From a bacterium (GTDB lineage: Bacteria > Electryoneota > JAOADG01): a stretch of 64,000 nt of DNA. Location of the stretch: NCBI GenBank assembly GCA_963681965.1, contig OY820579.1, positions 512,001 to 576,000 of the forward strand. The letters are read 5' to 3'. A program made the position numbers and the translations under genes. A model generated the notes under the pieces. That model searched no databases. It was not told where the DNA came from and saw only the letters and a program-made list of their open reading frames with translations. Positions 22,992 to 48,725 of the stretch are shown piece by piece. Within the stretch, counting starts at the first letter, position 1. Each line of letters begins with the position of its first letter.

Positions 22992-24539
22992 TTACTTTGT
23001 TAGTGTCATTTTCTTGGTCGAGGTGAAGCCCGGTGTCTGCAACGTATAGAAATAGTTTCCAGCCGGAAGGTTCGACGCGTCGAATTGGACGTTGTGACGC
23101 CCTTGCGATTGATTGCGATCCACCAACACCGCGATCGTTTGTCCTAATACGTTCTGAACTGTTAGCTTTACTGCCCCTTCGGTACCGACACTGTAGAATA
23201 TATCGGTAGTCGGGTTGAACGGATTCGGATAATTCTGAGCCAAACCATAGCGACCGATGATTGCGACATTATGCTGGGTCTGAGTTGGTGTTGCGTTCAC
23301 GATATTCGTATGAACAGCTTCGCGTCCGTCGAGATCGATATCGGAAATGCGGTAATAATACGTAGTTCCATTGGTGACGCGGGAATCCCGGAAACGGTAA
23401 TTATGTGCCACTGGGCTGTTCAATGCACCGGGAACTGCGGTGATCTGTTCGCCGATTTCGCCAATAACTGTTGAGCGGTAAATGCGGAAACTGGCGTTGT
23501 TTGTTTCCGACTCCGTATGCCATGCGAGATCGACATAACCTTCCCCGGCATTGGCAGTGAACGATGTCATTTCAACCGGCAAGAGACCGTCGGTAATCAT
23601 ATCCGACGAGGCGTACGCCAGTGAGTTACCGACCCCATTGAATGCCCATACCCGGAACCAATAATGTGTACTCGGTGTCAAACCGGTTACATCGAGATAC
23701 AGCTCGTCAACACTGGCATCGCCCCAAGGTGAGAAACTGGAACCATCGGTCGAAATAAAGACATGGAAACCGGTTTCGTTGTTGGCGTTATCGGTCCAAC
23801 CGAAGCGCATACCGGAAATAGTAACATTTGTGATCGTACCAGCGGTCGGCGATTCCGGCAGCGTGTCGAGCGTTGTCTGGTTTGCGATATTGGTGTAGTT
23901 CGAGAACTGAGTTCCACCGGTATTGAATGCTCTAACTCGATACCAGTACTGAGTCACAGTATTCAATCCGGTAACGTCGAGAAAGTTGACATCATACGAT
24001 GTCGTACCAGCCAGTGAATTTGTTGTGGCAAAGTTATCAGTCGAAATATAAACTTCGAAGCCTTCTTCGTTGGCAGAATTATCTGTCCAGCTAACTTGTT
24101 GCGAAGTTGCTGCATTCAAAATTACTTGGCAGACCGACGGATCGGCTGGGGGAACGTCGATCGTGGTATTGCCCATCGCGACGTAACCGGGTGCCGAAGT
24201 AGTGCTGTTGCCACTGGCATTGTGCGAATAAACACGGAATGAATAGAACGTGTTTGGGTTTAGGCCTGTGACGGAATAATTATATGTAGTATTAATCGAA
24301 GCAACAGTGGTGGAAACAACCGAAGTTAAAAAACTATAACCTCCGCCCAACCCGGCGTCCCAATAGATATAGAACGAGGTTTCGTTGTTGGATTTATCGA
24401 CCCAGTGCAAATCCATTGAATTGGTCGTGACGTTATCGATCTGAGTAACACTGGCTCCGGGACGGATTGGTTGAGCAAACACTATGCTCGCCGCGGCAAT
24501 CAGTATGAATGCGAATACAGCTTTAAGCGAATTCTTCAT
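22992..24539 (-). CDS. Secreted fibronectin type III repeat protein with C-terminal sorting domain
   Basis: Three W.D.S.NE.GF...GL...T.Y..RV.A.N FN3 units, LPVEMTSF module, QNYPNPFNPTT tail; start ATG 24539 (MKNSLK) with RBS. Confidence 0.9.
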   Translation of the reverse strand: MKNSLKAVFAFILIAAASIVFAQPIRPGASVTQIDNVTTNSMDLHWVDKSNNETSFYIYWDAGLGGGYSFLTSVVSTTVASINTTYNYSVTGLNPNTFYSFRVYSHNASGNSTTSAPGYVAMGNTTIDVPPADPSVCQVILNAATSQQVSWTDNSANEEGFEVYISTDNFATTNSLAGTTSYDVNFLDVTGLNTVTQYWYRVRAFNTGGTQFSNYTNIANQTTLDTLPESPTAGTITNVTISGMRFGWTDNANNETGFHVFISTDGSSFSPWGDASVDELYLDVTGLTPSTHYWFRVWAFNGVGNSLAYASSDMITDGLLPVEMTSFTANAGEGYVDLAWHTESETNNASFRIYRSTVIGEIGEQITAVPGALNSPVAHNYRFRDSRVTNGTTYYYRISDIDLDGREAVHTNIVNATPTQTQHNVAIIGRYGLAQNYPNPFNPTTDIFYSVGTEGAVKLTVQNVLGQTIAVLVDRNQSQGRHNVQFDASNLPAGNYFYTLQTPGFTSTKKMTLTK

Positions 24540-25508
24540 TAATGGTCCTTTCCGAAAAGTTATTTCGATAACAGGCGCTATCGATTGATTGCGGCAATGA
24601 TTGTTCGTCATTGCAGCATTAATGTGATTTATAACAGACACTTAGCAGACTCTCGCCAATTACTATCAAGATCGCTACCGATTTTTTTATCCAACTCCGG
24701 TAAGTAGTACCCACCCGATAGCGCTAGTTATGGCGTTGAGTTATTGTCTTGCGACAGTAATCGATCAACATATTCTGATACGGTGATAGATTTAATATAA
24801 TTGGGTTAATATACCGTCTGATTGGTTTGATGAATGTGTGAAATAGGCTATGTAATGCACTAAATAATGGTTGTTTATATTTGGCGTGTCGAAAAATAAA
24901 TACAATAACCCGGGTAAATATTATTGAAGTGAATTGTAAAATAGGGTATTATAATTGAATTCTATATCGATATACTCAACACTGGCGGCAAATGCGCAAT
25001 AGTTAACACTGAATTATATAAATGAGCGATCAACTGTGCATAAAACTGTGATGATTATAAGAGGTATTTTGCGAGAAATTCGAACAAATTATTTATAATA
25101 CTCCCCGAGATCTTGCAGATTCGCCGGATTGGTCTACGAAGGAAAGCCCTTCAAGAAGAATACATATTTTCTTGAATGTAAATATATATTGTGGGGTGGA
25201 ATGTTGCGGTTTATTATCTGAAATAATTCTAGAAGTGGATGATAAAGATTGAATTATCGCTATAGATTATGTAATAGCGTTCTATGTGTTCACGAGACAT
25301 AGTTCAATAATGCACATAGGGTATATTGTAGAGAGGCTTCGTGGTGTTGCACTGCGCAAAGTTCCCACGATCAATTTTTGATAGACACAACCAGAAAAAA
25401 GATTTTACGACTTCGTAAAGGGTCGATATTCCTGTTTTCGGACAGCGTGAACAATCAGAAGCGAATTCTGGAGAAGAAATCGAGAGTTGTTGTTCTAGAA
25501 ACGAAGAT

Positions 25509-28881: not shown

Positions 28882-29217
28882 ATGTTCCCTAACACCCTCA
28901 ATACCCACTGCAAAGTCAGCCGTAAGTTTCATCTCCCGCTCCCGACTTTGCCGGATCACCTGAAGCATATGCTGCCGGTCGCAACCACCCCCTGCCGGAT
29001 TCCACTCGACGACTGGCAGGTCTGCCATGCCGATGCCTGCTACCTGAATGCGCGGTGTCCCGCCTACGCTGGAACGGCTCCACAGTTCGAACCCAAGCTG
29101 CCGCTATTGGACTCGAATACCGGTCGCCACCAACGCCGACCTCACTGTTCCGGCTTCCACCTCGTTCCGGAGTGGGAACTTGAAGCCGAAACCGATGACG
29201 AATTCACCACCCGATAA
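28882..29217 (+). CDS. Hypothetical Cys/His/Pro-rich protein, first gene of the capsid island
   Basis: GAGG RBS; follows the promoter; C-x9-C-x4-C-x5-C cluster; no recognised family. Confidence 0.45.
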   Translation: MFPNTLNTHCKVSRKFHLPLPTLPDHLKHMLPVATTPCRIPLDDWQVCHADACYLNARCPAYAGTAPQFEPKLPLLDSNTGRHQRRPHCSGFHLVPEWELEAETDDEFTTR

Positions 29218-29261
29218 CGCAAGCCACTCCACCCAATTCGACCTCAGCAAAGGAATGTACA

Positions 29262-29615
29262 ATGATGTCGACACCACAAACAATAATTGACGTTGATCAA
29301 TTGCTTACTATCGCCGCTCCACCGATACCGGTTGAACCACCCGTTCCAACCGTATCGCCGGAGCAACACAATCTCTCCACTGAACCGACCCTCCTCCAGC
29401 GGTTGCGCGATGAGCTGGTCGCCAAAGCCCGTCTGATCGGTTGGTCCGACAGCGAACTGGTGCGACTTTCCCGCTGCGAATCCGAAGCCGATCTGTTCGC
29501 CGACCGCGAACGTATCGGACGCGAACTGTCGCTTCGCTTCGCAGTCCCGCCGCTCTATTCGTCGCAACCGCTGGCTTCGCCCGCCGGCATCCTCGATGTC
29601 CGGCATTACCGCTAA
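29262..29615 (+). CDS. Hypothetical protein, possible stand-alone capsid scaffold
   Basis: AAAGGA RBS; Pro-rich N-terminus then helical LQRLRDELVAKARL...; immediately upstream of the decoration and MCP genes. Confidence 0.55.
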   Translation: MMSTPQTIIDVDQLLTIAAPPIPVEPPVPTVSPEQHNLSTEPTLLQRLRDELVAKARLIGWSDSELVRLSRCESEADLFADRERIGRELSLRFAVPPLYSSQPLASPAGILDVRHYR

Positions 29616-29693
29616 TTCACTTCGGGAATGTTTTCTTCGCCTAATCAACAAAGGTTCCCAATCCCCACCTAATCAGCCGGAAAGGAAAAATTC

Positions 29694-30131
29694 ATGGCTA
29701 CCAGTTTCCCCTTCGATAATGAAAACATCGGCGCCGGTCCGTTTCTCACGATGAAAATCGACACCGCTACCGGTCAGCAATTCACCCAGACCGATCTCGA
29801 CAACAATACCGTCGCTTGTGTCGTGTCCGATAACAACACCGTTGCCAAAGGCACAGCCGGCGATCGCGTACTCGGCAAAGTGATCTGGGTGAGTGAAGAA
29901 CTCTCCGCCGGAACCACCATTCCGGTACTCTGCAGCGTGCAGGCGCGGGGTGTCGCACGGTTTGTCTACACCAGTCCGATACCCGAAGTCGGTAACATGG
30001 TCGAAACCGACGGTTGCGGAAAAGTCCGACAGGCATCCATCGCGACTGTTCCTGCCGGTGGTTTGAAACACAACGGCTACGTCATCTCTGTCAACACGTC
30101 CAACAATACTTGCGACGTCTGGCTCGGATAA
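29694..30131 (+). CDS. Putative capsid decoration/cement protein
   Basis: 145 aa, beta-rich, with V.KG..GD.V.G.V, V..RG, G..V..DG.G.V pattern; strong RBS; directly before the MCP, the usual decoration-gene position. Confidence 0.65.
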   Translation: MATSFPFDNENIGAGPFLTMKIDTATGQQFTQTDLDNNTVACVVSDNNTVAKGTAGDRVLGKVIWVSEELSAGTTIPVLCSVQARGVARFVYTSPIPEVGNMVETDGCGKVRQASIATVPAGGLKHNGYVISVNTSNNTCDVWLG

Positions 30132-30184
30132 TTCCAAACTCCCTTACCGAAAATCCCTATAAAATCCCTATTCAGGAGAATACA

Positions 30185-31258
30185 ATGATTGATCTATCGC
30201 GCGCCGAAGCGCTCAAACCTACCATTCGCGATGCCTCGCGTTCCGGTAACCTCGCTTTGTATCACGAAGCTCAAACCCGCGGCATCACACTCACCGAATT
30301 GCTCGAAGAATACGACCCGTCGCCCCGTACGCCAGACGGTCGGATCGATAGCCAGTTGGATGCATTCGAGCGTCAACTTGCCGTACACGATATCCGTATC
30401 GGCGGGCGCAATGCCGCCTCCGTTGAACAATTCCTGATGTCCGATGCCGTCATGCTCGCCCCCGAATTCATTCTCCGTGAAATTCGCCACGGCATGACGC
30501 TGATCGTAGACCCGAGTGATTTGGTCGCCGTACAGGTTCCGGAAAAAGGACCGTCGGTGAAGCCCGCCTATTTCAAGACCGAACAAGTGAAGAAAACCGT
30601 CGCACGGCATGGTGAAGCGGCTGGCTTCCCGACTGTGACAGTCAATTACCGCGAGAAGGATGCGCAGATGATCGATCGCGGTCGTCAATTCGACTTCCCC
30701 TATCGCGTGATCCGGCATCAACGTTTAACTGAATTCCGGGCACTGTTGTGGGCGATCGGTTCGCAGATGGCAGCCGATGAATTGAATGAGATCTACAATG
30801 TGCTGCGCAATGGCGACGGCACGTCGCCCGCGCCAGCCAACGTGTTCAATGGCTCTGCCGGAACGCTCGATTACAAAGATCTCGTCCATCTGGTGTTGGA
30901 ATTCAGTGCACCGGCTCGGATGACACACCTGTTGCTGGGTCGCAGCGATCTCGAAAAAATCCTCAATATGTCGCAATTCGAAGATCCGTCGATTTGGCAC
31001 AGCCATGAAATGATCGCCCGAACCGGAAACTACTCGGCAATGCAACCGCTCCACGGCAAATTGATCAAGATCGATGGCGCGACTGCGACGGAATTGATTG
31101 CGATCGATAGCCGATTCGCTTTGCGGGAATCGATCTCGCAAGCGTTAATGGTCGAAGCCGAAAAAGTGATTTCGGCGAAGCTCGAAACGGCGGTAGTATC
31201 GAAGGAATCAGTTTACACCGTTATGCTTGACGATGCGGTGAAGCTCTGCAACTACTAA
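30185..31258 (+). CDS. Phage-like major capsid protein (HK97 fold)
   Basis: ATG 30185 with AGGAG RBS, 357 aa; LTELLEE.DPS...LDAFERQL...DIRI.G, L.PEFI.R.IR.GM, GE...FP, GR...F.Y..IR.QRL, NGDG, D.RFAL, E.EK.I...LE. This pattern recalls MCPs of Firmicutes prophage-like clusters (from memory). Confidence 0.85.
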   Translation: MIDLSRAEALKPTIRDASRSGNLALYHEAQTRGITLTELLEEYDPSPRTPDGRIDSQLDAFERQLAVHDIRIGGRNAASVEQFLMSDAVMLAPEFILREIRHGMTLIVDPSDLVAVQVPEKGPSVKPAYFKTEQVKKTVARHGEAAGFPTVTVNYREKDAQMIDRGRQFDFPYRVIRHQRLTEFRALLWAIGSQMAADELNEIYNVLRNGDGTSPAPANVFNGSAGTLDYKDLVHLVLEFSAPARMTHLLLGRSDLEKILNMSQFEDPSIWHSHEMIARTGNYSAMQPLHGKLIKIDGATATELIAIDSRFALRESISQALMVEAEKVISAKLETAVVSKESVYTVMLDDAVKLCNY

Positions 31259-31300
31259 ACCATTCAATCAGTCGGACAGGATGAATTCCTAGCGTGAGAA

Positions 31301-31330
31301 ACCCTGCCTTCGGTAACGAAGGCAGGGGGT
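31301..31330. terminator. Hairpin after the MCP, between convergent genes
   Basis: CCCTGCCTTCG-GTAA-CGAAGGCAGGG. Confidence 0.7.
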
Positions 31331-31356
31331 GAGTCGGTAAGTGATCGCGATTGAAT

Positions 31357-31716
31357 TTATTTCGACCAAAGTCCGATTGCAGCGGTTTCCGGCGGTTCGA
31401 TGATCGCGATGCGACCCCAGTCGTTGCCGAGTTCGGTGACCGGTTTTTTGATCTTTGCACCGAGGGCGACCGCTTGATCGAATGCTGCTTGAATTTGATC
31501 GACTCCGATGTACAGCAACGTGGAATACTCTTCCGGCAAGCTCGGGCGCAATTCAATACCACCGTCCATCGAGCGTTCGCCGCCGGTCTTGAATGAGATG
31601 TAGTCGGGATGTTCCGCATGCGGTACATGGCACTCCCAACCAAATAACGATTTGAAGAATTCCGCAGTTTTCTTCGGATTGAGTGATAAGATTTCAAGAT
31701 AAACGATCGAGTTCAT
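31357..31716 (-). CDS. VOC/glyoxalase family protein
   Basis: IVYLEI...P.K...FF..LFGW, YI.VD.I......A..LG, G.IAI..P.....GLW. Confidence 0.9.
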   Translation of the reverse strand: MNSIVYLEILSLNPKKTAEFFKSLFGWECHVPHAEHPDYISFKTGGERSMDGGIELRPSLPEEYSTLLYIGVDQIQAAFDQAVALGAKIKKPVTELGNDWGRIAIIEPPETAAIGLWSK

Positions 31717-31864
31717 CGAACCTCCGGTTTTATCGATTAATCATAATTTTCTGAAAATTGCGCTCGTCGAGCCGCAATTACGGTGTAATAGGTTACGAAT
31801 TAAATACGATTCCTGCTCGCCTATGTGATATCAAACGAATTCACATGAAATTGGAGAAAGCACG

Positions 31865-32245
31865 ATGGCTATCAACGCAACCACCAATTATCTGCTTGCC
31901 AAAAAATCGGAATCGCTGCTGGCGTTTGCACGTCAATTGACCAATGTCACAGTGATGCTGTACGGTCCCGGTCAATTAGACGTGTCGGGCATGCCAGTTG
32001 CCTGCGCAGGTCGATTGAAACGATTGGTCGTATTCGACGGAACGACTGTCGGTTCAGTCGATTCCGATGTCGATATCGATACCGGTGATCAAATTGCCGT
32101 GCAAGCACAATTCAATAACACAGCATTCACGATTACCGTACTGAAAAATTCGATCGCAACGTCACTCTCATTGCCGGAAATTGGCGGGTATCGTCCGATC
32201 TGGGCAACGGTGCTGATCGAATTAACCGATCCGGTACTGATTTAG
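31865..32245 (+). CDS. Hypothetical beta-rich protein, probably virion-associated
   Basis: GGAG RBS; MAIN.. start; 8 bp upstream of the adaptor-like gene. Confidence 0.6.
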   Translation: MAINATTNYLLAKKSESLLAFARQLTNVTVMLYGPGQLDVSGMPVACAGRLKRLVVFDGTTVGSVDSDVDIDTGDQIAVQAQFNNTAFTITVLKNSIATSLSLPEIGGYRPIWATVLIELTDPVLI

Positions 32246-32253
32246 GAGGAACC

Positions 32254-33096
32254 ATGGCTTTTACAACGATCGATAAAATGCGGCTGCAACTGATCGGTCC
32301 GACCGGAGCAGCGCGAAAAATTCTCAATGAACTCGTATTGATTGGGGATAATGGTGACGGTGTTTTGGCGAACAATCCGATCGAAGAGCATTCGGTTCAA
32401 ATCAAGGGCATTACCACGAATCAAATCGATAGTGCCAGTGTGGTTTTGGACGATTCCAACTGGACGGTTTTCGCTCCGCAAAATGTTGTTCCAAATTCCG
32501 TCGCAGTGGTAGATGGACCGCAACTGTACCGCTTCTATGCCGAGAATTCGGATTTTCTGATCGACTACCAATTGGGTCGAATCAAGCGCCCTTCAGGTTC
32601 GAATATCACTACTGGACAGGGTGTCACGGTGTTCTATCAGTCGTACACATTTTACACCGAAAATGTCGATTACACGTTCGACTATAATCTTGGCACCTTC
32701 AAGCTTGCAACTGGAGGAACAATTCTTTCGGGTCAATATGTTTGGGTCGATTACAATATCGCAGAATCCGGAGCTACCGATGCGTTATTGACGGAAGCAT
32801 TGGAAGAAGCTCATGCGAAAATTGTCGCCCGGTTGTTGCCCGGATATTCGGAAATCTCTACCGATTCATTACTCGCTGTTGGTGAAACCGAACTAGCGTG
32901 TGCAATCGCGGCACGGGCACTTGCCAGTAAACCGCTCGGTATCAGCCGCGATACTACCAGCGATGACCGCGCGAGTGCATGGTTGAAGCTCGCCGATCAA
33001 TTCGAGCGAGTAGCGTGGCAAACATTGCAGAAATTTATTTCCAAGCCGGCACGGAAATCGGGTTACGCTGTGAAAAGTGGCAGCGGAAGCTATTAA
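32254..33096 (+). CDS. Putative head-tail adaptor (Mu gp36/SPP1 gp15-like) with inserted duplicated beta domain
   Basis: AGGAGG RBS; MAFTT.D N-terminus; helical C-terminus D.LL.EALEEA...I...L...Y...LA....A; two internal Y.EN.D(F/Y)..DY..G...G.I..GQ.V.V.Y repeats. Confidence 0.6.
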   Translation: MAFTTIDKMRLQLIGPTGAARKILNELVLIGDNGDGVLANNPIEEHSVQIKGITTNQIDSASVVLDDSNWTVFAPQNVVPNSVAVVDGPQLYRFYAENSDFLIDYQLGRIKRPSGSNITTGQGVTVFYQSYTFYTENVDYTFDYNLGTFKLATGGTILSGQYVWVDYNIAESGATDALLTEALEEAHAKIVARLLPGYSEISTDSLLAVGETELACAIAARALASKPLGISRDTTSDDRASAWLKLADQFERVAWQTLQKFISKPARKSGYAVKSGSGSY

Positions 33097-33108
33097 TCCG
33101 TTCGATGA

Positions 33109-34296
33109 TTATCTAAGTAACGAGAGATAAGGCAAACACATTGCGATTACGACACACCATCCAACTTTTTTGGCAATCCGTTCCGGAAGTGACCAGAGCG
33201 ACCAGCAGACAGCCAGCACCAAAGCGGGTGCGGCGATCAGAAGTAGGCGCGCTTCGGTTTGATGATTCATGATCGCATTAATCAACCATGCGAGTATCCC
33301 GCACCCGCCACCGATACCCCACACCAGTAACACGCTGCGAGTCTGGACGTTAATACCGGAAAGAAATTTCGCGCGTTGATGCCATCCCCAGATAAGAGCA
33401 CCAAGGGAAGCGATAACGTAGATCAATCCGGGAAGCTTTACCCAGTAAGACGACCATGGTTCCTGCCACGGACAGACTAGCGAATAACAAAACGCTACTA
33501 CCGCTTGCCGGAAACCGATTGGAATCGGATTGCTAATTCCCAGGATGCTGTGATAAAAAGCCAATCGCTGTGCCCAAAGACTGTACGTGAGCACGAATAC
33601 TAAACCCGCAATTTGAAGCACCCGCACCCATTTGGTGAAGCGATTGTAAAAACCGCTCATCAGAATGGCGGAGAGTGGCATGATCCACAACACCACTGCC
33701 GGTAGTTTCGAATAGGCACCCAGTGCCATGATTGCGCCAAGCAGAACGAAATCGTGCCACTGAAATTTGCGACTGATCAGTAATGCCGAAAAACCGTATA
33801 ACAACGCGCACGAGACTGCCAACAACGCGTCGTTGTTAATCGTTGCCGATGCGGGAAGCGTCGCGCCGAGCAGACTTCCGACGGCAAGAATCGCGTCCCG
33901 CATCCGGGGTAACGGCACCGAGATGGACAGTATCCAAAGCGCCAAATACCAGAGCAGAAATGAAAACAGTCGGATGAAATATTCACCGTGATTCGTCGCG
34001 GTAAATACCTTCAGGATGGTTGCGGACAGTTGGTAATACAGGATCGGTTGCCAATATTCCGCGCTGCCGGTAATGAGGGTGGAATCGGAATACCGGTTGC
34101 GGTCCGGATGCGGTAACCCTTTCGCATCGCGCTGATAGAGCACATTGTTCCAATGTGAGAATTCGTCGTTGAATGCCGGGATGGATCCCGGCAGTGTCTG
34201 TAATGGCATGGCGAAGATCAACCAGAGCCGAAGTAGGATTCCGGCAATCAATGCAAACCAGACATATTTCGGTAAATGAAATGGAGTAACGTTCAT
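33109..34296 (-). CDS. Polytopic membrane protein, GT-C (ArnT/PMT-like) glycosyltransferase
   Basis: DE..H, EY.QP.LYY, INND.L, K motif; many TM helices. Confidence 0.7.
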   Translation of the reverse strand: MNVTPFHLPKYVWFALIAGILLRLWLIFAMPLQTLPGSIPAFNDEFSHWNNVLYQRDAKGLPHPDRNRYSDSTLITGSAEYWQPILYYQLSATILKVFTATNHGEYFIRLFSFLLWYLALWILSISVPLPRMRDAILAVGSLLGATLPASATINNDALLAVSCALLYGFSALLISRKFQWHDFVLLGAIMALGAYSKLPAVVLWIMPLSAILMSGFYNRFTKWVRVLQIAGLVFVLTYSLWAQRLAFYHSILGISNPIPIGFRQAVVAFCYSLVCPWQEPWSSYWVKLPGLIYVIASLGALIWGWHQRAKFLSGINVQTRSVLLVWGIGGGCGILAWLINAIMNHQTEARLLLIAAPALVLAVCWSLWSLPERIAKKVGWCVVIAMCLPYLSLLR

Positions 34297-34405
34297 GATC
34301 ACCCGATCGAAGATTGATCCGGATCCGTTCAATAACGAGTAAATATACTCACAAAAAAAGGCGGATGAATCCATCCGCCGAAATGAAAGTTCAGTTTATC
34401 TGTTG

Positions 34406-35359
34406 CTATTTGCTGCCCGGAACGATCGTACTAGTCTGAACAGTGTCCTGATTTGTTCGTGGAAGTTTACTGTAATCCAGTTCACTACCTCGCATGCTAT
34501 GAGGAATTAGATAGATGCCCGACATGATGATGGTCGCGGCTACAGCCCACCAGCGACCGCGTCGTTCGCCATCAGGTTTGCGTAGTTGCCAGACCGCCAA
34601 AACCCAAGCGAGAATCATCAATGCGGTTTTGTTATCGGTGAGATCTTCCCCAAATGGCCACCCGGTCCAGAACGCATCAAAGGCGTATTTCTGAACCAAT
34701 GGACCGAGAACAAATCCACCGACAATCAGTAAAATCGTAGTAATGAGGGTTTTGCGATAGACAGGTTCTTTCAGCAGCGCCCCAAGTAAAATTCGCATGG
34801 CAAAAAACAATCCGGTGAACATACATAAAATATGTGGTAACAGGACGAACGGAGGTACATCCCCTTTGAACCGAGTAACCACTGCACTACCGGTTTGGGG
34901 AAGCAGAACGCGTTCCGCACCCCGGTTCAACGCAACCTTGTATTCCAATTTTCCGGCGGCGGGTTGTTTCGGAAGATAGCCGATAAGTACCGACCGGGTC
35001 GATCCCGTCGATTTTCCGCGATTGCTTATGATAGTATGACCGATTCCCGATAATTTCCCAATCTGGTCGGCGGTGAGGGTTTCGCGCTGAAGTGGTAACA
35101 CTCGTAATGGCTCATCGAGCTTGTAGCGCTTCCAGATAACTTCGCCATGAATAGTTGTATCGCCGACATCAATCAATACTGGTTGATCGCCGGTCGTTTC
35201 ATGGGTTCGCAATAACGCGTAATGGATCGATTGCCCACCAAGGCTCGCTTCGCCATCCAAGGGATAAGTCGGACCGGTGCTGCGCTGATAGTGTGCAGAT
35301 AAAAAAGTTAATATAAGTGCCAATATCCACAATAAGATGGATCGGATCGTTTTCACCAC
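34406..35359 (-). CDS. Conserved membrane protein
   Basis: YQR.TGPTYP, QP.AGKLEY, LGP.VQKYAF..FWTGWPFG.DLTDNKT, IPHS..GSELDY. Confidence 0.75.
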   Translation of the reverse strand: MVKTIRSILLWILALILTFLSAHYQRSTGPTYPLDGEASLGGQSIHYALLRTHETTGDQPVLIDVGDTTIHGEVIWKRYKLDEPLRVLPLQRETLTADQIGKLSGIGHTIISNRGKSTGSTRSVLIGYLPKQPAAGKLEYKVALNRGAERVLLPQTGSAVVTRFKGDVPPFVLLPHILCMFTGLFFAMRILLGALLKEPVYRKTLITTILLIVGGFVLGPLVQKYAFDAFWTGWPFGEDLTDNKTALMILAWVLAVWQLRKPDGERRGRWWAVAATIIMSGIYLIPHSMRGSELDYSKLPRTNQDTVQTSTIVPGSK

Positions 35360-35475
35360 ACCCCCGTTGTTGTCTGCTGATTATACGTAATTACTTGTTA
35401 AAAAATCAACTCCGGGGTGAGGAATTAATCGGTTTCAATCGAGAAGAACCAGCTTTTGTATGGAGGATCAGCTTT

Positions 35476-35787
35476 ATGAATTGGATCGATGAATTCGTTG
35501 ATGATTTGTTCGATACGAAAGAATTAACCGACGTCGCACTATTTGCCGAAGAACACGGATTGACTGTCGATGAGGTGAACAGTGTCGATGAAGGATTACT
35601 CTATAACAGTATGATGCGTCGGTTCAAGCGGGAAGCAACTCTGGCTATCCCGAAATTGGCGGAGGCGTTACTGGAAAAAGCGTACCGCGGCGATATCGCC
35701 GCGATTCGATTGGTTATTGCACTGGCAAAACCGGAAACCGTGAAAGGAAAAGGCGATGACCCGATGGAATCATTCCGCGAGTCCTAA
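35476..35787 (+). CDS. Putative terminase small subunit
   Basis: GGAGG RBS and ATG at 35476; 103 aa helical protein with AL.EKA..GD..AIRL; overlaps the start of the large terminase. Confidence 0.6.
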   Translation: MNWIDEFVDDLFDTKELTDVALFAEEHGLTVDEVNSVDEGLLYNSMMRRFKREATLAIPKLAEALLEKAYRGDIAAIRLVIALAKPETVKGKGDDPMESFRES

Positions 35788-37149
35788 ACCGCATACATCT
35801 GCGATCAAACGGGAAATTGCCAGGCTTCGACAGGATCCTGCGCAATTTGCCGCCGACTACTGTTGGACCGACCACCCTAGTCTCGGGATCAGGCGGTTCC
35901 CCTCTTTCCCTATCTTGCCCGGCTCTTTTCGGCGCTCGAGACTGAGCCGCGGCTGCTAGTATTGAAAAGTCGTCAGGTAATGGCAAGTTGGTCGATTGCT
36001 GCTTGGTTGATTCATCGAGCGCTATTTTATTCGCCGGGCGATTTCATGATTCTTTCAAAAGAAGAACGTTCGGCGGAAGAATTATTGTTGCGGATCCGCC
36101 ATTTGATTGCGCGGCTACCGCGCTGGATGGGAATCCGATGTGCAATCAAACGACGAGAAATTGTTTTTGCGAAAATTGGAAGTCGAATATTTACTCTACC
36201 CGCCGTTCCAGAGGCGGTGCGGTTGTATACTCCTACAGTAGTGGTGTGGGATGAAATGGCGTTTACTCGCGAGGCGGAACGGATTTGGGAGGCGCTCTCG
36301 CCGGCACTCGATAGCAGCGCGCGATTTGTCGGAATCAGTACACCGAATGGTCGTTTTACCACGTTCGGTCGATTGGTTCAGAAACCCGATCAATTCGGCT
36401 TCTCATTGCACCGAATCCACTACCGCGAGCGTCCGGATCGCGGCGATGCATGGCGCACTGAAAAGCAAAAAGAGTTGTCCGAATCCGAATGGCGGCGGGA
36501 ATATGAATTGTCGCTGGAAGAAATTAATGGATTGCGCGTCATCGAAGAGTTTGTGCCCTCGGTACATATTGAATCTGCTCCACTTTCAAAGAAAGACGTA
36601 CTGCAGTCGCCCCGATTGTTTCGGTCGATTGATTACGGGTATCGGACACCAGTGGTTCTGTGGATTGCCGAACGGGCGGACAACCGATTGACTGTATTCG
36701 ATGAATGGATTGGTGACAATGCGACACGCGATGATTTGCTAGCGGCAATCCGGGCAATCGACCGGAAGTGGGGTATTTCCGATCGAAATATCGAATGGAC
36801 AGCCTGCGATCCTGCCGGTGCGCAACACGGTGACACCGGAATTCCGGTAGTGGATTTCCTTGCAGGTGCGGGAATCCGGCTGATGTTCCGAAAATCCCGG
36901 ATCGAAGATGGATTGGATATCGTCCGTACTTATTTTCGAAGAGCCGATGGGGGGAGTGTTTTAAAAGTATCTCCACTGTGTACAAAATTGATTCTCGATC
37001 TAGAATCGTACACCTACGACGAGCGAACCGGAAAGCCGATTAAAGGGAATTATGACCACACAATTGACGCACTACGATATTTTTGCTTAAGTTATATGGT
37101 TCCTACTCCAGCCAAACGAAAAGTGCGGGTCGCCGGATCAAAACGCTAA
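35756..37149 (+). CDS. Terminase large subunit, in two frames joined by a -1 shift near 35905-35911
   Basis: Walker A-like LVLKSRQVMASW, Walker B VVWDEMAF, ISTPNG, W.REYE; nuclease motifs SIDYGYRTP, CDPAG, DHTIDALRY. The N-terminal DP..F...Y.W segment is in the 35756 frame. Confidence 0.88.
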
Positions 37150-37524
37150 TGAGAGGCGAGGAGCATTGGAAAGGAGCATGATAATAAATATCTTGTAACG
37201 CTACCAAGGAGTTTTTCAGGTCTCTGGACACCATAATACTTTCTAGCTCGATTTTTGGTCGGAAATTGTATTTCTGTCGCTGAGATCTGGAAAACGGATC
37301 CCTTCCTATCCGAACTGGATCCGCGGTAACTGCTTTCTCGTGATCGTTGGTTGATGCAATAGATGATCACGCTTTCGTTATTGGAAATATCACTCGGCTA
37401 GTTATCATTTAGATCAGATGATTACGGAATAATTAGGTGCGATCGGGTCACCGAAATAAACTGACAAGAACTCCCGGTTTATTACGTACCAATGTTACCC
37501 TTTACGAATACGACTAGAGGAAGA

Positions 37525-39063
37525 ATGAATACCGATAACCATGGAATACCACCAAACGGTTTCCGCTCAGTTGAAGAGGAGTACGAGCGACTGGGTAAGG
37601 ATGCCGAACGGCTGCGGTTGGATGGCAAACGCGATGCTCAACATGAGTTACATCGCGAAATGCTCGTTTTTGCTAAAAAAAACAATATCAAACGTCTGAT
37701 TGCAGAAGCTCATGGTTTGGTTGGTCGCGATGCGATGGAGGTCGGAGATTTTAAACTAGCGTTTTCCGAATTGAAAAAATCACTGGATTTATTGTACGAA
37801 TTTGACGATGCCGAGACTTTGGGTCGAACGCTTGGAAATTTGGCAAACCTGCTCCGGATTCAAGGATTGTTCGAAGAAGCAAAGAAGTATGGTCAAGATG
37901 CTTTGGTTCAAATCCGAAAGACCGACAACCGTCGCTATGAGATGGTGGTTCTCGGCAATCTCGCCTCGCAGGAAATTGAACGGGGCAATTTTGTCGAAGC
38001 AAGTCCGTTCTTGCTCGCAGCCTTGGAAATCGCTCAGAAGATTGGCGATGCCCACGCCGAGGTACTGTACTACGGTGAATTAGCGAAAATCCGTCATTCC
38101 GAAGGAAAAGTCGACGAAGCATTCGAAGTAATCGACAAAGCGATTGCGATTGCGAAGAAACACGATCTGCGCAGCGAAGAGGGAACGATTGTCCGCACTG
38201 CCGGTCTGATTGCCACTTCCGAAGCGCAATGGAAACGCGCCCGGATGTTGCTGGAGCAAGCGCTGGCAATTCACCGCGAAGCGAAAGCATTCCGGTTTGT
38301 TGGAATCACCCTGCATAATCTTGGATTGATTGCCTTGACGATGGGCGATGCCGATCTTGCCGAGCGTTACCTACAGGAAGCGATTGCGATTCATCGCAGT
38401 AGTGGAAACGTTCATTCCGAAGCGCTATCCATGTCGGTGCAAGCGGAACTCTCGTTCTGCCGTGGCGAACATGAAGCGGCACTGCAGAAATTGAACCGCG
38501 CGCTCCAGATATCGCACGACATCAAAGACCGCAGTTTTGAAGCGATGGCAAAGAGCTATATCGCATTTATATATATCGAACGAAAACGCTACAGCGAAGC
38601 CTTGACCAAACTGGAACAAGCCGTCGAAACGCAACGCGATACCCGCAATACCCGCGATTTGGCAATCTCTCTCTACCGGTTGTTAGTACTCTACCTCGAA
38701 TTGGGCGATCAGAAACAGGCAATCAATTGCCTGAAAGAAGCCGATGAAATTACTCAGAATAGTCGTGTGCAGATGGTTCAGATCCAGTCCGCAGTCGCAC
38801 ATGGATTACTCACGTTATTCTGGTACAAACAACAAAACGACGGTGTGGTCGTCAATCGCGAAGAACCGGTAACACTGGAAGCGGTAATCGATTATTATCT
38901 GAAAGCCAAACAGATTTTCGAAGAGAAAGAGATCGGTTCGACCAATTTGAGTGGTTACTTCTTGTTGCAGTTCCGCGATCGGATGATAAAGTCCGGAATT
39001 CCATTCGGTGAGTTACCACTACCAACTAACTGGATCGCACAAGATCGCGGCAGTACCCGATAA
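37525..39063 (+). CDS. Tetratricopeptide repeat protein
   Basis: About 40-aa repeats L.NL...G....A...L..AL.I.R..G. Confidence 0.85.
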   Translation: MNTDNHGIPPNGFRSVEEEYERLGKDAERLRLDGKRDAQHELHREMLVFAKKNNIKRLIAEAHGLVGRDAMEVGDFKLAFSELKKSLDLLYEFDDAETLGRTLGNLANLLRIQGLFEEAKKYGQDALVQIRKTDNRRYEMVVLGNLASQEIERGNFVEASPFLLAALEIAQKIGDAHAEVLYYGELAKIRHSEGKVDEAFEVIDKAIAIAKKHDLRSEEGTIVRTAGLIATSEAQWKRARMLLEQALAIHREAKAFRFVGITLHNLGLIALTMGDADLAERYLQEAIAIHRSSGNVHSEALSMSVQAELSFCRGEHEAALQKLNRALQISHDIKDRSFEAMAKSYIAFIYIERKRYSEALTKLEQAVETQRDTRNTRDLAISLYRLLVLYLELGDQKQAINCLKEADEITQNSRVQMVQIQSAVAHGLLTLFWYKQQNDGVVVNREEPVTLEAVIDYYLKAKQIFEEKEIGSTNLSGYFLLQFRDRMIKSGIPFGELPLPTNWIAQDRGSTR

Positions 39064-39186
39064 CGCGAACGGGTTAATTCACTTCGTCAATGCGACCGAT
39101 TGCGAAGTTGTCTTTCCAAACAATCTTCCTGGTTTTATAACTGTTCGCGATCGAACGAACTTCGTATCATGTTCAAAGAGGTGGTT

Positions 39187-39891
39187 ATGGTACGGATCAT
39201 TCCAGCACTGGATCGTCGCTTCGGCGATTTCGGCTGGCTCAAAACATACTGGTTATTTTCGTTCGATCGTTATCACGATCCCAATAATATGCATTTCGGT
39301 AACCTCCGCGTCTTTAACGACGATATCGTGCTGCCTAAATCGGGCTTCGGCACGCATCCACATCGCGAGATGGAAATCGTGACGATCGTCTTGAGTGGAA
39401 CAGTGACTCATGAAGACAGCATGGGGAATCGCACCGAAATAAAAGCCGGAGAAGTGCAGCGAATGACCGCCGGTACAGGAGTATCTCATTCCGAGCACAA
39501 CCTCGGTGCCGACCCACTCAATCTGTACCAAATTTGGTTTTTCCCCCGCGAACCCAATCTTAAACCTTCGTACGAACAGGCATCATTGCTTCCGGAAGCC
39601 CGCAAGAATAAATTGCAAGCAGTCGTTTCGGGTACCGACCCACACAGCTTGGTGAAGATTCATTCCGATGCGACAATTTATCTGTCCGATCTGACCGAAG
39701 GAAAAAAACTTTCGTATCCACTTTCATTCGGACGCGGCGCATTTGTATACATCACTTCCGGTGAGATCTCTGTCAATGGAACCACGTTACAATCCAAGGA
39801 TCAAGCGCGATTGGAAAACGAGACTTCGCTCGAGATCGTCGCGAATCAGTCATCCGAGTTCATTATAATCGATGTCGATCTGACGGTGTAA
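39187..39891 (+). CDS. Pirin family protein (YhhW-like)
   Basis: GWL....FSF..Y.DP..M.FG.LRVFNDD, FGTHPHREMEI, HEDSMG, MTAGTG..HSE. Confidence 0.95.
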   Translation: MVRIIPALDRRFGDFGWLKTYWLFSFDRYHDPNNMHFGNLRVFNDDIVLPKSGFGTHPHREMEIVTIVLSGTVTHEDSMGNRTEIKAGEVQRMTAGTGVSHSEHNLGADPLNLYQIWFFPREPNLKPSYEQASLLPEARKNKLQAVVSGTDPHSLVKIHSDATIYLSDLTEGKKLSYPLSFGRGAFVYITSGEISVNGTTLQSKDQARLENETSLEIVANQSSEFIIIDVDLTV

Positions 39892-39930
39892 CGGAACCAA
39901 CAATCCAAGTCAGGCAAAGAGGCTGCTGGC

Positions 39931-40455
39931 ATGTGGAATTTCGATTTCTCTGTATTGACGATTATCCTTCGCACGACGATTATCTATTGCGTGATTCTGC
40001 TTGGAATGCGGATATCCGGGAAGCGCGAACTCGGTCAGATGACACCGATCGACCTCGTATTGATCCTGCTCATCTCGAATGCGGTACAAAATGCGATGAC
40101 TGGTCCGGACACGTCCGTTACCGGCGGGATTATCGCAGCCGCAACACTGCTAATATTGAATTGGGTTACCAATCGGTTGATTCAGAAAGACCGCTCGTTG
40201 CGCAAATTACTCGAGGGCACGCCAACGATTCTGGTTCACAATGGTAAACTGATTCACAAGAATTTGCTATCCGAGAAGATTTCTTCCGAAACCTTGAATC
40301 AAGCATTTCGCGAACACGGTGTCACGAATATTTCCGATATACATCTTGCAACGCTGGAAATTGACGGCTCGATCAGCGTCATCCGGATCGATGAATTACC
40401 GGCTCAACTCAAACCGCATCACAATTTCCGGTTCATCGAAAAGAAGAATAGCTGA
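39931..40455 (+). CDS. DUF421/YetF membrane protein
   Basis: R.SGKRELGQ.T..D, LEGTP..LV.NG, LE.DG.ISV. Confidence 0.92.
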   Translation: MWNFDFSVLTIILRTTIIYCVILLGMRISGKRELGQMTPIDLVLILLISNAVQNAMTGPDTSVTGGIIAAATLLILNWVTNRLIQKDRSLRKLLEGTPTILVHNGKLIHKNLLSEKISSETLNQAFREHGVTNISDIHLATLEIDGSISVIRIDELPAQLKPHHNFRFIEKKNS

Positions 40456-40583
40456 CTTACCGCGATCAACTTACCGAAATAGAATTTTTTATCACTTGAA
40501 CTAACTGAACCCCGTTTCTTCTGCTAACGAATACGCTCGTCGGAGCGTTTTCCACTCATCCTCCGAATCCGAAAGGAATCGTC

Positions 40584-41873
40584 ATGAATCACATCTCCTC
40601 TGCGCGATGCGAATCGCGTGTTTCCGGTATTTCGCCTCGGTTACGAGAGTACCGGTTACGGCAATCTACTAACAATCCTCCCGATCAAATTGCACCCGGC
40701 GATGGTTCTTCGCTTTCCTCGACGTACACCGCAGTGGAATCCGCTCAACCGATGTCGGCGTCGTTGTTGGACGGATTTCTTTACACCGGTGGTAATCGCG
40801 CGGATTTCTATCGTTATTTGCGCGACCGCTTGCCGATCGTATCCGCCGGAATTTGGTCGTGGGTACATCTTTGCGCGACACCACTGGAACGTCATTTCGA
40901 TGGACCCGCTCACGCCGTGCGGGAAGCGGAACAGATTCTCGCTGCGCTGGAACGTCGATTGCAGCCGTATCCCGGGCGATTGGCGCTTGACCGACTCACC
41001 GAAGCGTTATTCTGGGAGTTGTTCACGCTCGGTCGCTGTGCCGCTGAAATTGTGCCATTACCCGATCTGAGCGGTTTATCGGCGATCCGGTTTATCGATC
41101 CGTATCGCGTTCGCATCGGCAAGAATCAGGAAAAATTCTACCTCGATGACGATCGAAAATTGATTCCAGTCGTACCCGACCGGTTCTTCTATGCGGTGTT
41201 GCAGCACGATCCGGCGCAACCGGCGGGGATCGATCCGCTTGCCACCTTGCCGTTCGTACTTGCCATCGAAAAGCAGTTGCTCGAAGATATGGCGTGTTCC
41301 AGTCACAATGTCGGTTCGCCGCGAATGCAGGTGAAGATCACACCACCGCTGCGCGAGCCGAGTGAATCTGCCGACGAATATGAAAACCGCGCCGGGAAGT
41401 ATTTCGACGATACGGTCAGTGGTTTTGCGAAACTCGATCCCGACGACAATCTCTTCACTTGGAACGACGTTGAAGTGACGATTATTGGCGGTGAAGGGCG
41501 TCAAACGTCGCAGTGGCGAATCAGTCGTCAGGAAGTCGTCGAGGATGTTGTGACGGGTCTAAAGCTGTTTCCGTGGGTTCTCGGTCGCAGTCACGGCACC
41601 ACCAAGAATTGGGTCGAGGCGCAATTCAATTTGCTGATGCACATCGTCAATTCGCTGCAACTCCGCGGACTGCAACTTGCCGAACGGATTGCGAATACCG
41701 AACTCGCGCTGCGCGGCAATCCCGCCCGGGTCGCTTTCGCATATACTCCACATCCCGATCCCTTTGCGTTGCAACGCGAACAGGCATTTTCGCTGAAAAC
41801 CAATACGCTGCTGACGCTGGTCGATCGTGGCTACCTCACGAAAGATGAGGTCATGGGGAAACTGAAATTGTAA
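40584..41873 (+). CDS. Putative phage portal protein
   Basis: AAGGA RBS; 429 aa; FYR.LR..LPI..A.I, L...G....EIVP, G...L..LPFV, N.G.PR..V, DV.V..IG.EG, ..GL.P..LG....TT; directly before the prohead protease. Confidence 0.78.
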   Translation: MNHISSARCESRVSGISPRLREYRLRQSTNNPPDQIAPGDGSSLSSTYTAVESAQPMSASLLDGFLYTGGNRADFYRYLRDRLPIVSAGIWSWVHLCATPLERHFDGPAHAVREAEQILAALERRLQPYPGRLALDRLTEALFWELFTLGRCAAEIVPLPDLSGLSAIRFIDPYRVRIGKNQEKFYLDDDRKLIPVVPDRFFYAVLQHDPAQPAGIDPLATLPFVLAIEKQLLEDMACSSHNVGSPRMQVKITPPLREPSESADEYENRAGKYFDDTVSGFAKLDPDDNLFTWNDVEVTIIGGEGRQTSQWRISRQEVVEDVVTGLKLFPWVLGRSHGTTKNWVEAQFNLLMHIVNSLQLRGLQLAERIANTELALRGNPARVAFAYTPHPDPFALQREQAFSLKTNTLLTLVDRGYLTKDEVMGKLKL

Positions 41874-41926
41874 CGAACTGTAGCATTAGTTCATACTATC
41901 AACGATTATCTCATCGACTCTGAAGA

Positions 41927-42646
41927 ATGGAGTACAATATGTTGGAGCAAACACTCATTGGAGTACCCGATCCGATTGTTGTGGAACCGGAATCGGAAGC
42001 ATCGGAAACGGATTTAGCAACCATTCATGCGCTCAAGAATCCGCCACTGGAACCGTTGACACTGGACGCAATTTATGTGCGTCGCTGTCGTCTTGCCGGA
42101 GATGTTCTCGATTCGAAAGGGGGGTGTTTCCGCACCGAGGATTTACCGCGGTTGCTGGAAATGGTGCAGGGTGCGCCGGCACTGATCGGGCATGATCGAA
42201 GTCAAAAGCCGACGGCACGATTTTTCGGCGGCTCGATCGAAGAACACGACGGACACCGTTACATCGTTCCGAAATTCTATTGGTTGAAGGCGCATAGTCA
42301 TGCCGAAGATCTCCGGCTGGAAATCGATGGCGGGTTGATCAACGAAGCGTCGATCGCATTCTTGTTTACGACACCGACTTGCTCGATATGCGGTGGCGAT
42401 ATCCGCGACTGCGAACATCAGGTGGGAGAGCAGTATAATGGATGCGATTGTTTTTATTACTACGATGGCATCGATATGGTCACGGAAGGATCGTTGGTCT
42501 ATCGCGGTGCCGAACCTGGTACGGCGCTGCTGCCAAATCAATTGTCGGTGCGACCGTTTTTGCTGCCGGTAAAGAACAGTACCGAACCACTCCCGAAAAT
42601 CCGTTATCGCGGGAAGTTGTGGCGGATCCTTCCCGATCGCGAATAA
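41927..42646 (+). CDS. Putative prohead (HK97-type) maturation protease with Cys/His insertion
   Basis: LIGHD (His), I.GG...E.SI.F (Ser), E.SLV..GA.P motifs; CSICG...C.H..G..Y.G..C insertion; alternative start 41939. Confidence 0.78.
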   Translation: MEYNMLEQTLIGVPDPIVVEPESEASETDLATIHALKNPPLEPLTLDAIYVRRCRLAGDVLDSKGGCFRTEDLPRLLEMVQGAPALIGHDRSQKPTARFFGGSIEEHDGHRYIVPKFYWLKAHSHAEDLRLEIDGGLINEASIAFLFTTPTCSICGGDIRDCEHQVGEQYNGCDCFYYYDGIDMVTEGSLVYRGAEPGTALLPNQLSVRPFLLPVKNSTEPLPKIRYRGKLWRILPDRE

Positions 42647-48536: not shown

Positions 48537-48725
48537 AAAAAAATGATTTTTAAATCCATGAGAAAAGTGTTGCAGGGTTTCTGTTAGTATAGTAGATTTC
48601 ATTCTAAAGTCTATCTGCACACACTTCTTGGTTAAAGTAACTGGCAATCGGAACGACCCATACTTCTCTTCATGACAGCTAACTTTCATTAGCAGGAATA
48701 TACTTTGCGTTTAGGAGATAAATGT

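Follow-up and report, generated by a model that had tools for sequence, protein, structure and literature searches.

The stretch of DNA analysed here, 64,000 nucleotides of contig OY820579.1 (assembly GCA_963681965.1, positions 512,001 to 576,000) and hereafter called the window, encodes on its + strand a cement/decoration protein, an HK97-type major capsid protein (MCP), a conserved protein of 126 amino acids (aa), a head-to-tail adaptor, a TerS-like open reading frame (ORF), the large terminase TerL, a portal and a prohead protease. We consider it likely that this region is an ancient phage head and DNA-packaging module, head-only, domesticated and maintained by its host, and a near-core trait of the phylum Calditrichota. 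Because the tail-less set is inherited vertically and kept intact nearly phylum-wide, Calditrichota probably build DNA-filled capsids of their own. MCP, portal, TerL and prohead protease, the head and packaging set of HK97-type caudoviruses, are encoded together. An earlier note on this DNA had described four + strand islands (28882-31258, 31865-33096, 35476-37149 and 40584-42646), which the ORF map bears out, and had taken them for an old, host-maintained capsid and DNA-packaging system and not for a decaying prophage. The latter view is strongly supported by the single-copy presence of the genes, by their agreement with taxonomy and RpoB, and by their ratios of nonsynonymous to synonymous substitution rates (dN/dS).

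Distribution and descent in Calditrichota

Profile searches covered all 79 species genomes of the phylum, 51 of them at least 90% complete; the genome of the window (G000) is a single contig of 4.24 Mb. MCP was found in 70 of the 79 genomes, TerL in 68 and portal in 66, in single copies except where genes are split across contig ends, so that presence in relatives, a check proposed in the earlier note, proved near-universal. Among the genomes at least 90% complete the counts were 47/51 for MCP and 46/51 for both portal and TerL, and single-protein queries against 41 related genomes returned MCP in 39, portal in 36 and TerL in 37. All three genes were present together in 62 of the 79 genomes and none of them in six; partial absences mostly concerned fragmented assemblies. 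As controls, an RpoB domain was detected in 77 and a phage sheath family in 6 of the 79 genomes.

The module is inherited vertically across the phylum. An MCP tree was built from 61 Calditrichota rows (the window and 60 of the 70 matched genomes) and six outgroup proteins, leaving out partial or split copies (G015, G019, G042, G057, G068, G076) and three full-length ones (G006, G011, G045). On this tree the eight GTDB family labels need seven changes, the minimum possible, compared with a mean of 36.4 for shuffled labels (0 of 200 shuffles as low). The p-distances of MCP and the RpoB domain, compared over 43 genomes and 903 pairs, were closely correlated (Pearson 0.92, Spearman 0.76, Mantel 0/2000), in good agreement with the congruence with the species tree that had been proposed as a check. 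Median p-distances were 0.37 for MCP and 0.35 for the RpoB domain; by this measure, MCP has diverged about as much as the compared RpoB domain.

The genes are also under purifying selection. Nei-Gojobori estimates on close pairs chosen from the tree gave dN/dS values for MCP of 0.010-0.087 in 14 pairs, the 15th pair being saturated, and of 0.02-0.23 for the other six core genes (0.05-0.23 for the 126-aa protein, o126). The values expected in the earlier note, far below 1, were thus obtained for all seven genes, with one pair of the cement gene (o145) at 0.37, where the ORF call is probably too long. The composition of the core genes has ameliorated to that of the host; that note, too, had called it host-like. 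Genome-wide, the ratio of observed to expected counts was 0.06 for GGCC, 5.6 for CGATCG and about 2 for both GATC and CCGG, biases that suggest long-standing restriction-modification pressure or a repair bias. The core genes share the avoidance of GGCC (0 against 29.6 expected) and the enrichment of CGATCG (14 against 1.7 expected). An ordinary defective prophage, which would be patchy, neutrally decaying and foreign in composition, was rejected on the frequency of MCP as against that of the sheath family, the low dN/dS values and the host-like composition.

Capsid, adaptor and protease proteins

The MCP gene lies in the ORF at 30014-31258 (+), with a likely start at ATG 30185 and an AGGAGA ribosome-binding site upstream, and its product matches phrog_3922 (E 6e-44). 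The cement/decoration protein o145 (29694-30131, +) matches phrog_4588, a "virion structural protein" (E 2e-8), was grouped in a protein atlas with the DUF2190, Phage_cement_2 and Phage_cement clusters (score 0.96), and has a mean column identity of 69%. Its closest atlas clusters carry the label Zixibacteria. The portal (40584-41873, +) was recognised by phrog_3753 (E 7e-28). The beta-rich protein o126 (31865-32245, +), found at 40 of the 48 genome loci compared, returned only unnamed, partly viral clusters in the atlas and no useful match in a profile search against PDB sequences.

For two proteins the fold check suggested in the earlier note was run with AlphaFold2 (AF2) models, searched with Foldseek and VIA. 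The protein encoded at 41927-42646 (+; o239), which matches phrog_16951 and carries a Cys-rich insertion, is identified by its fold as the prohead (capsid maturation) protease. The best Foldseek match of its model (pLDDT 76) was the T4 prohead protease gp21, with probability 1.0, and the VIA wide search likewise gave gp21 at Z 11.5 (150 residues aligned, root-mean-square deviation 3.8), with herpesvirus proteases next (Z 5.8 and 5.1). His89 and Ser142 do not vary among 14 homologues, on which Pfam found nothing; profile searches of o239 and o145 against PDB sequences gave nothing useful. The protein encoded at 32254-33096 (+; o280) is assigned by its fold to the head-to-tail adaptors and has inserted Ig-like beta domains. 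Its model (pLDDT 81) had phage neck/adaptor proteins as all nine of its best VIA matches (Z 8.0-8.8), with HK97 gp6 at Z 7.4; these Z values are moderate, but the matches are mutually consistent. The two inserted domains resemble Ig-like decorations of tail proteins, and Foldseek on the same model matched these domains only, the adaptor fold being seen by the VIA wide search.

With Pfam, MCP and TerL gave sub-threshold matches only and the other core proteins none. NCBIfam names no core protein, its sub-threshold matches being confined to the inserted beta domains of the adaptor; the core proteins are therefore probably annotated as hypothetical. An encapsulin nanocompartment, an HK97-fold shell that has neither portal nor terminase, was rejected, as the portal and a TerL with intact catalytic motifs are conserved alongside MCP.

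From these identities a pathway can be proposed in which MCP and portal would assemble a procapsid, the gp21-like protease would mature it and the cement protein would strengthen the shell. TerL, with its ATPase and nuclease motifs intact, would then pump double-stranded DNA through the portal and cut it, after which the adaptor would close or cap the portal. Since no tail genes accompany the module, the expected product would be a tail-less DNA-filled head. Having neither an integrase nor recognisable replication genes, the module would be immobile as a unit, and the packaged DNA would most likely be that of the host.

A conserved frame break in the large terminase

TerL is encoded in two parts. 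The N-terminal part, 51 codons in frame 0, occupies 35756-35908 (+), from ATG 35756 to TTC 35906-35908. The body, 413 codons in the -1 frame with the ATPase and nuclease regions, follows at 35908-37149 (+; ORF 35962-37149 in the ORF map) and matches phrog_2 (E 4e-25). Fifteen sequences from across the phylum share invariant motifs, namely a P-loop-like KSRQ, presumably similar to the P-loop of lambda gpA, a Walker B motif WDE that holds the catalytic glutamate, and DxGY, DP.G and DH..DALRY as motifs of the nuclease. The small ORF that overlaps the start of TerL (35476-35787, +) has homologues in G001 and G003, no family match, and no significant similarity to the small-ORF family found upstream of TerL at 16 other loci. 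Hence, of the two terminase genes that the earlier note had assigned to the third island, TerL is confirmed by profile and motifs, while TerS is a candidate by position.

The frame break falls at the identical codon in three genomes of the window's family (G000, G001 and G003; 51 + 413-414 codons), whereas G002 and all other families have TerL in a single frame. At the junction stands the motif T_TTC_CCT in G000 (35905-35911) and G001, and G_TTC_CCT in G003; a -1 slip on either yields exactly the contiguous TerL sequence of G002. In all three genomes both parts have stayed open despite saturated synonymous sites (pS 0.76-0.84, pN 0.23-0.26), and only in these three does the TerL profile match begin at position 27-28. 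An assembly error was rejected, as contigs from four runs of two studies are identical at the break, with no indel, although the assembly itself may derive from some of these runs. A restart at an internal start codon was likewise rejected, since the three genomes conserve no such codon upstream of KSRQ. The note had called the ORFs intact apart from a single shift in terL. The shift is real DNA; its conserved, recoding-like position does not fit a reading of it as damage.

Full-length TerL in the three genomes would need a -1 ribosomal frameshift after codon 51. With the break at the identical codon of three genomes on a motif of the T_TTC_CCT type, we lean towards a programmed -1 frameshift, the main alternative being a tolerated split gene. 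The heptamer of G003 is imperfect and no convincing shared RNA structure was found downstream (fold z -0.4 to -2.5), both of which speak against programmed slippage. Programmed -1 frameshifting is known in phage and bacterial genes such as those of the tail chaperone G/GT and dnaX. The TerL site resembles these in its X_XXY_YYZ-type motif and in the conservation of both frames, and differs in its place, behind codon 51 of a gene for a large terminase, and in its restriction to part of one family. Our literature search found no report of a frameshift in a terminase, and the conserved break would make this packaging motor one of the rare recoded ones.

Order and spacing of the module genes

The 48 genome loci show a single gene order (cement, MCP, o126, adaptor, TerL, portal, protease), with all of these genes on the same strand. 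Per-gene tblastn (E <= 1e-5) detected cement at 46 of these loci, MCP at 48, o126 and the adaptor at 40 each, TerL at 37, portal at 28 and protease at 21, the contigs of many loci being short and breaking off ahead of the later genes. Compact copies measure about 6.4 kb (e.g., L054 9509-16043). Several lineages carry insertions between MCP and o126, between adaptor and TerL, and between TerL and portal, often of surface proteins sorted by the type IX secretion system (T9SS), and gaps within the module reach 16-39 kb in some genomes. In G002, MCP, TerL and portal lie on three separate contigs; in G003, TerL and portal lie about 10 kb apart on one contig and MCP on another.

The ancestral form was probably a single operon of about 6.4 kb comprising a small ORF, cement, MCP, o126, adaptor, the TerS-like ORF (perhaps), TerL, portal and protease. 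Since most relatives keep a compact cluster in the same order, the four islands of the window are a derived state, most extreme in the window's own family, where cellular genes have been inserted between the genes of the module. The scattered and permuted layout that the earlier note had regarded as a property of the system is thus a lineage-specific break-up, the order MCP..TerL-portal-protease being found phylum-wide.

Tail genes, mobility and viral relatives

No tail gene was found in or beside the module at the 48 loci, in searches that did not systematically address non-contractile or short tails, nor were tail genes for it found by a scan that did not take in every ORF of the window for tail or lysis genes. 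The window contains no tRNA gene and, as claimed in the note, no integrase of the tyrosine type, the nearest being some 690 kb away from the end of the window, in a search that did not extend to serine recombinases. Elsewhere in G000, at 2515000-2556000 (L122, L123), lies a complete and separate prophage of the myovirus type. It has a TerL, a portal, a minor head protein and an MCP (phrog_2522) of its own, together with a sheath, a tape measure, a baseplate wedge and a large DNA methyltransferase, and is adjoined by a tyrosine integrase (2515646-2516167). The proposed search of the rest of the genome for tail genes did therefore find sheath, tape-measure and baseplate genes, but in an element with head genes of its own.

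Downstream of the protease, Caldithrix-like loci carry a conserved gene run, which encodes a secreted product (about 188 aa), proteins of LamG/beta-helix type, a small membrane protein and a T7-lysozyme-like protein of the Amidase_2 family. Several of these downstream genes encode signal peptides and are therefore unlikely to be parts of a virion. The small membrane protein and Amidase_2 could form a lysis cassette tied to the module in the Caldithrix-like family only. G000 has no homologue of the downstream genes save one weak LamG match, and none of the lysis-like pair.

IMG/VR held a single related locus (L059; IMGVR_UViG_3300009431_001290), an 8.4 kb fragment that shares the gene order and is probably a piece of a Calditrichota chromosome miscalled as viral. 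A phage genome collection held six related records, with MCP identities of at most 29.5%, and two of them showed the canonical order TerL, portal, protease, cement, MCP. Searched against 1.84 billion protein representatives, the MCP profile gave 658 matches at E <= 0.001; the Calditrichota MCPs collapse to one representative at 630 bits, and the next match scored 334 bits. Taken together, these searches speak against a circulating phage.

A metagenome scan seeded with the next-best MCP proteins recovered about 30 loci in canonical order, some on contigs of 100-324 kb (L147 324 kb, L173 232 kb, L150 100 kb). The gut phage records MT835508 and MT835769 and the metagenome loci L130-L173 share with the Calditrichota module a homologous MCP, cement, protease, portal and adaptor, and differ from it in the canonical order portal-TerL-protease-cement-MCP-adaptor and in extra conserved genes after the adaptor. 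At L130-L173 the order is portal-TerL-protease-cement-MCP-X-adaptor, the adaptor is followed by another six conserved genes, and foreign insertions occur there too; the post-adaptor genes have no homologue in G000. This family could represent either a lineage of prophages or a further domesticated module, and its presence on large metagenomic contigs may point to something similar in other sediment phyla. A sister lineage of the Calditrichota module is seen on a metagenome contig of 21.5 kb (L129), which has the Calditrichota order cement-MCP..adaptor-TerL-portal with four extra genes between MCP and adaptor; one of them, of 875 aa, is related to a gene of the canonical-order family.

Interpretation and comparison with known systems

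Several observations weigh against an ancient, host-maintained head module. MCP, portal and TerL are all absent from G026 (97% complete) and G043 (94%), so the module is dispensable in these genomes at least; the further genomes that have none of the three are G051, G060, G064 and G070. The MCP of G001 has an in-frame TAA where G000 has Gln (L011, about 10357-10379), and no portal was found in that genome; the MCP of G033 has an in-frame TGA (L105). These single stops could be errors of metagenome-assembled genomes, population variants or recent inactivation. In G068 (L045), a long-read assembly, MCP and TerL are in pieces, and together the stops and fragmented genes of the three genomes are signs of local decay or assembly error. 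TerS is a candidate only, and some families have no room for it between adaptor and TerL. Lysis-like genes adjoin the module at nine loci only (L038, L041-L044, L049, L051, L053, L055), each of which matches the Caldithrix-like family (f2) in gene content. The particles, and expression of the genes, are predicted here from sequence, and we know of no way in which a tail-less head would deliver DNA by itself.

Known examples of domesticated phage particles, the gene transfer agents (GTAs), are few and come from Alphaproteobacteria, Brachyspira, Desulfovibrio and Methanococcus. The module resembles GTAs (RcGTA, BaGTA and VSH-1/BhGTA, all viriforms) in that genes derived from tailed phages are chromosomally fixed and vertically inherited over a large clade, under purifying selection, with host-like composition, without integration or replication genes and, in some lineages, split over several loci. 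Known GTAs encode tails and dedicated lysis genes for their release; here head, packaging and adaptor genes only were found (7-9 genes, about 6.4 kb), in the order MCP..adaptor-TerL-portal-protease. Phage-inducible chromosomal islands that form capsids (cf-PICIs) release tail-less DNA-filled capsids that later join the tails of other phages, and their head-only set of MCP, protease, portal, adaptor and TerL is that of the module, with TerS a candidate in our case (10.1101/2025.02.11.637232). Whereas cf-PICIs are mobile, bear integrases and occur as identical copies across species, the module has no tyrosine integrase nearby, follows host phylogeny and is interrupted by cellular genes. By analogy, then, its evolution recalls that of a GTA and its gene content that of a cf-PICI. 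Our literature search found no GTA reported in Calditrichota and no paper that describes this cluster; the genome paper on C. abyssi mentions phage-associated genes in genomic islands in generic terms.

These comparisons frame the other explanations. A complete GTA, whose tail, lysis and regulatory genes would lie elsewhere, too diverged to recognise, and whose tailed particles would transfer random host DNA like RcGTA, is quite unlikely. It would account for the GTA-like evolutionary signature, for the conservation of an adaptor, normally a tail-docking protein, and for the lysis-like genes behind the module in one family, and GTA genes are known to lie sometimes at several loci (PMC9953437). 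It sits poorly with the lack of tail genes in or beside the module, subject to the limits of those searches for non-contractile and short tails, with the rarity of the sheath family and with the assignment of the G000 sheath, tape-measure and baseplate genes to a separate prophage; nor do the post-adaptor genes conserved in related metagenomic elements have counterparts in G000. The label GTA-like given in the earlier note accordingly holds for vertical descent and purifying selection; as a whole it goes beyond the evidence, no tail genes having been found and lysis-like genes occurring in one family only. It is very improbable that the module is a selfish element, whether a defective prophage or a cf-PICI-like capsid-forming satellite, that was repeatedly acquired or persists without benefit to its host. 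The head-only content with adaptor and terminase is that of cf-PICIs (10.1101/2025.02.11.637232), and a few copies are absent or carry stop codons. Such an element would hardly be expected to yield an MCP tree that recovers every GTDB family at minimum label changes, distances that track those of RpoB, single copies in most of the phylum and low dN/dS; the window moreover holds neither tyrosine integrase nor tRNA gene, the oligonucleotide biases are fully host-like, IMG/VR has one related locus only, and cellular genes have been inserted in the module without loss of its own genes.

It is also unlikely that particles are made for something other than gene transfer, such as defence (by capturing the tails or DNA of infecting phages, as satellites do), DNA export or DNA storage. 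Head-only content with a conserved tail-docking adaptor would suit such a role, the resident tailed prophage of G000 could supply tails, and a frameshift that limits TerL would fit a costly, tightly restrained system. Against it, no core protein matches the PADLOC defence models, the families share no conserved sensor or regulator next to the module, and the idea is wholly inferential. Within the preferred reading, that of a domesticated head and packaging module, we tentatively put forward the possibility of a new kind of viriform. This would be a tail-less head and packaging machine fixed since the origin of the phylum, which would release or exchange DNA independently of tails or whose heads would borrow the tails of resident or infecting phages, its output being throttled in one family by the TerL -1 frameshift. 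A phylum-wide head-only module whose MCP shows roughly the divergence of the compared RpoB domain would be among the oldest and most widespread domestications of a virus, and it would raise the question of what use a DNA-filled capsid has without a tail. As Calditrichota has cultured members and the module, at about 6.4 kb, is short enough for expression in another host, this question is testable.

Genes between and around the islands

At the start of the first island, the ORF at 28882-29217, which had been counted as a gene, was rejected: tblastn matched it at only 2 of the 48 loci (L011, same genus; L012, same family) and its composition is not protein-like. The small ORF at 29262-29615 (+), directly upstream of the cement gene, is a candidate scaffold. 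It has no family match (Pfam, PHROG, NCBIfam) and tblastn homologues at the same two loci only, and most relatives have a small ORF of about 85-130 aa at this position.

The genes between the islands had been described as ordinary cellular ones, an account that holds in part. The TPR protein, pirin and YetF/DUF421 genes (37492-40455, +) were recognised by Pfam and separate TerL from portal, which are adjacent in compact relatives. The VOC/glyoxalase-like gene (31357-31716, -) is a weak assignment, with Glyoxalase_6 at E 0.0018, below the family cut-off; the ORF overlapping it (31221-31697, -) had no tblastn match at the 48 related loci, the VOC-like ORF itself not being queried. Two inserted opposite-strand genes (33109-35359, -), encoding 421 aa and 317 aa, have no counterpart at related loci. 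The first (33109-34374, -), earlier labelled GT-C, has no Pfam match and no family, and the second, earlier called a membrane protein, has a weak match to Acyl_transf_3 (E 0.003). The flanks consist of housekeeping genes, namely FeoB, an iron-dependent repressor fused to FeoA, and BipA.

T9SS-sorted surface-protein genes with the Por_Secre_tail C-terminal domain lie at 22992-24641 (-) and 48705-50228 (+) of the window, and across families it is such genes that most frequently interrupt or adjoin the module. The family most often inserted there (fam520) was considered as a part of the module and rejected, being a mixed set of T9SS-sorted surface proteins. Finally, a long open antisense frame covers MCP in the window (29673-31141, -) and recurs at the same place at 49 related loci; these frames are most likely a by-product of codon bias and not genes.

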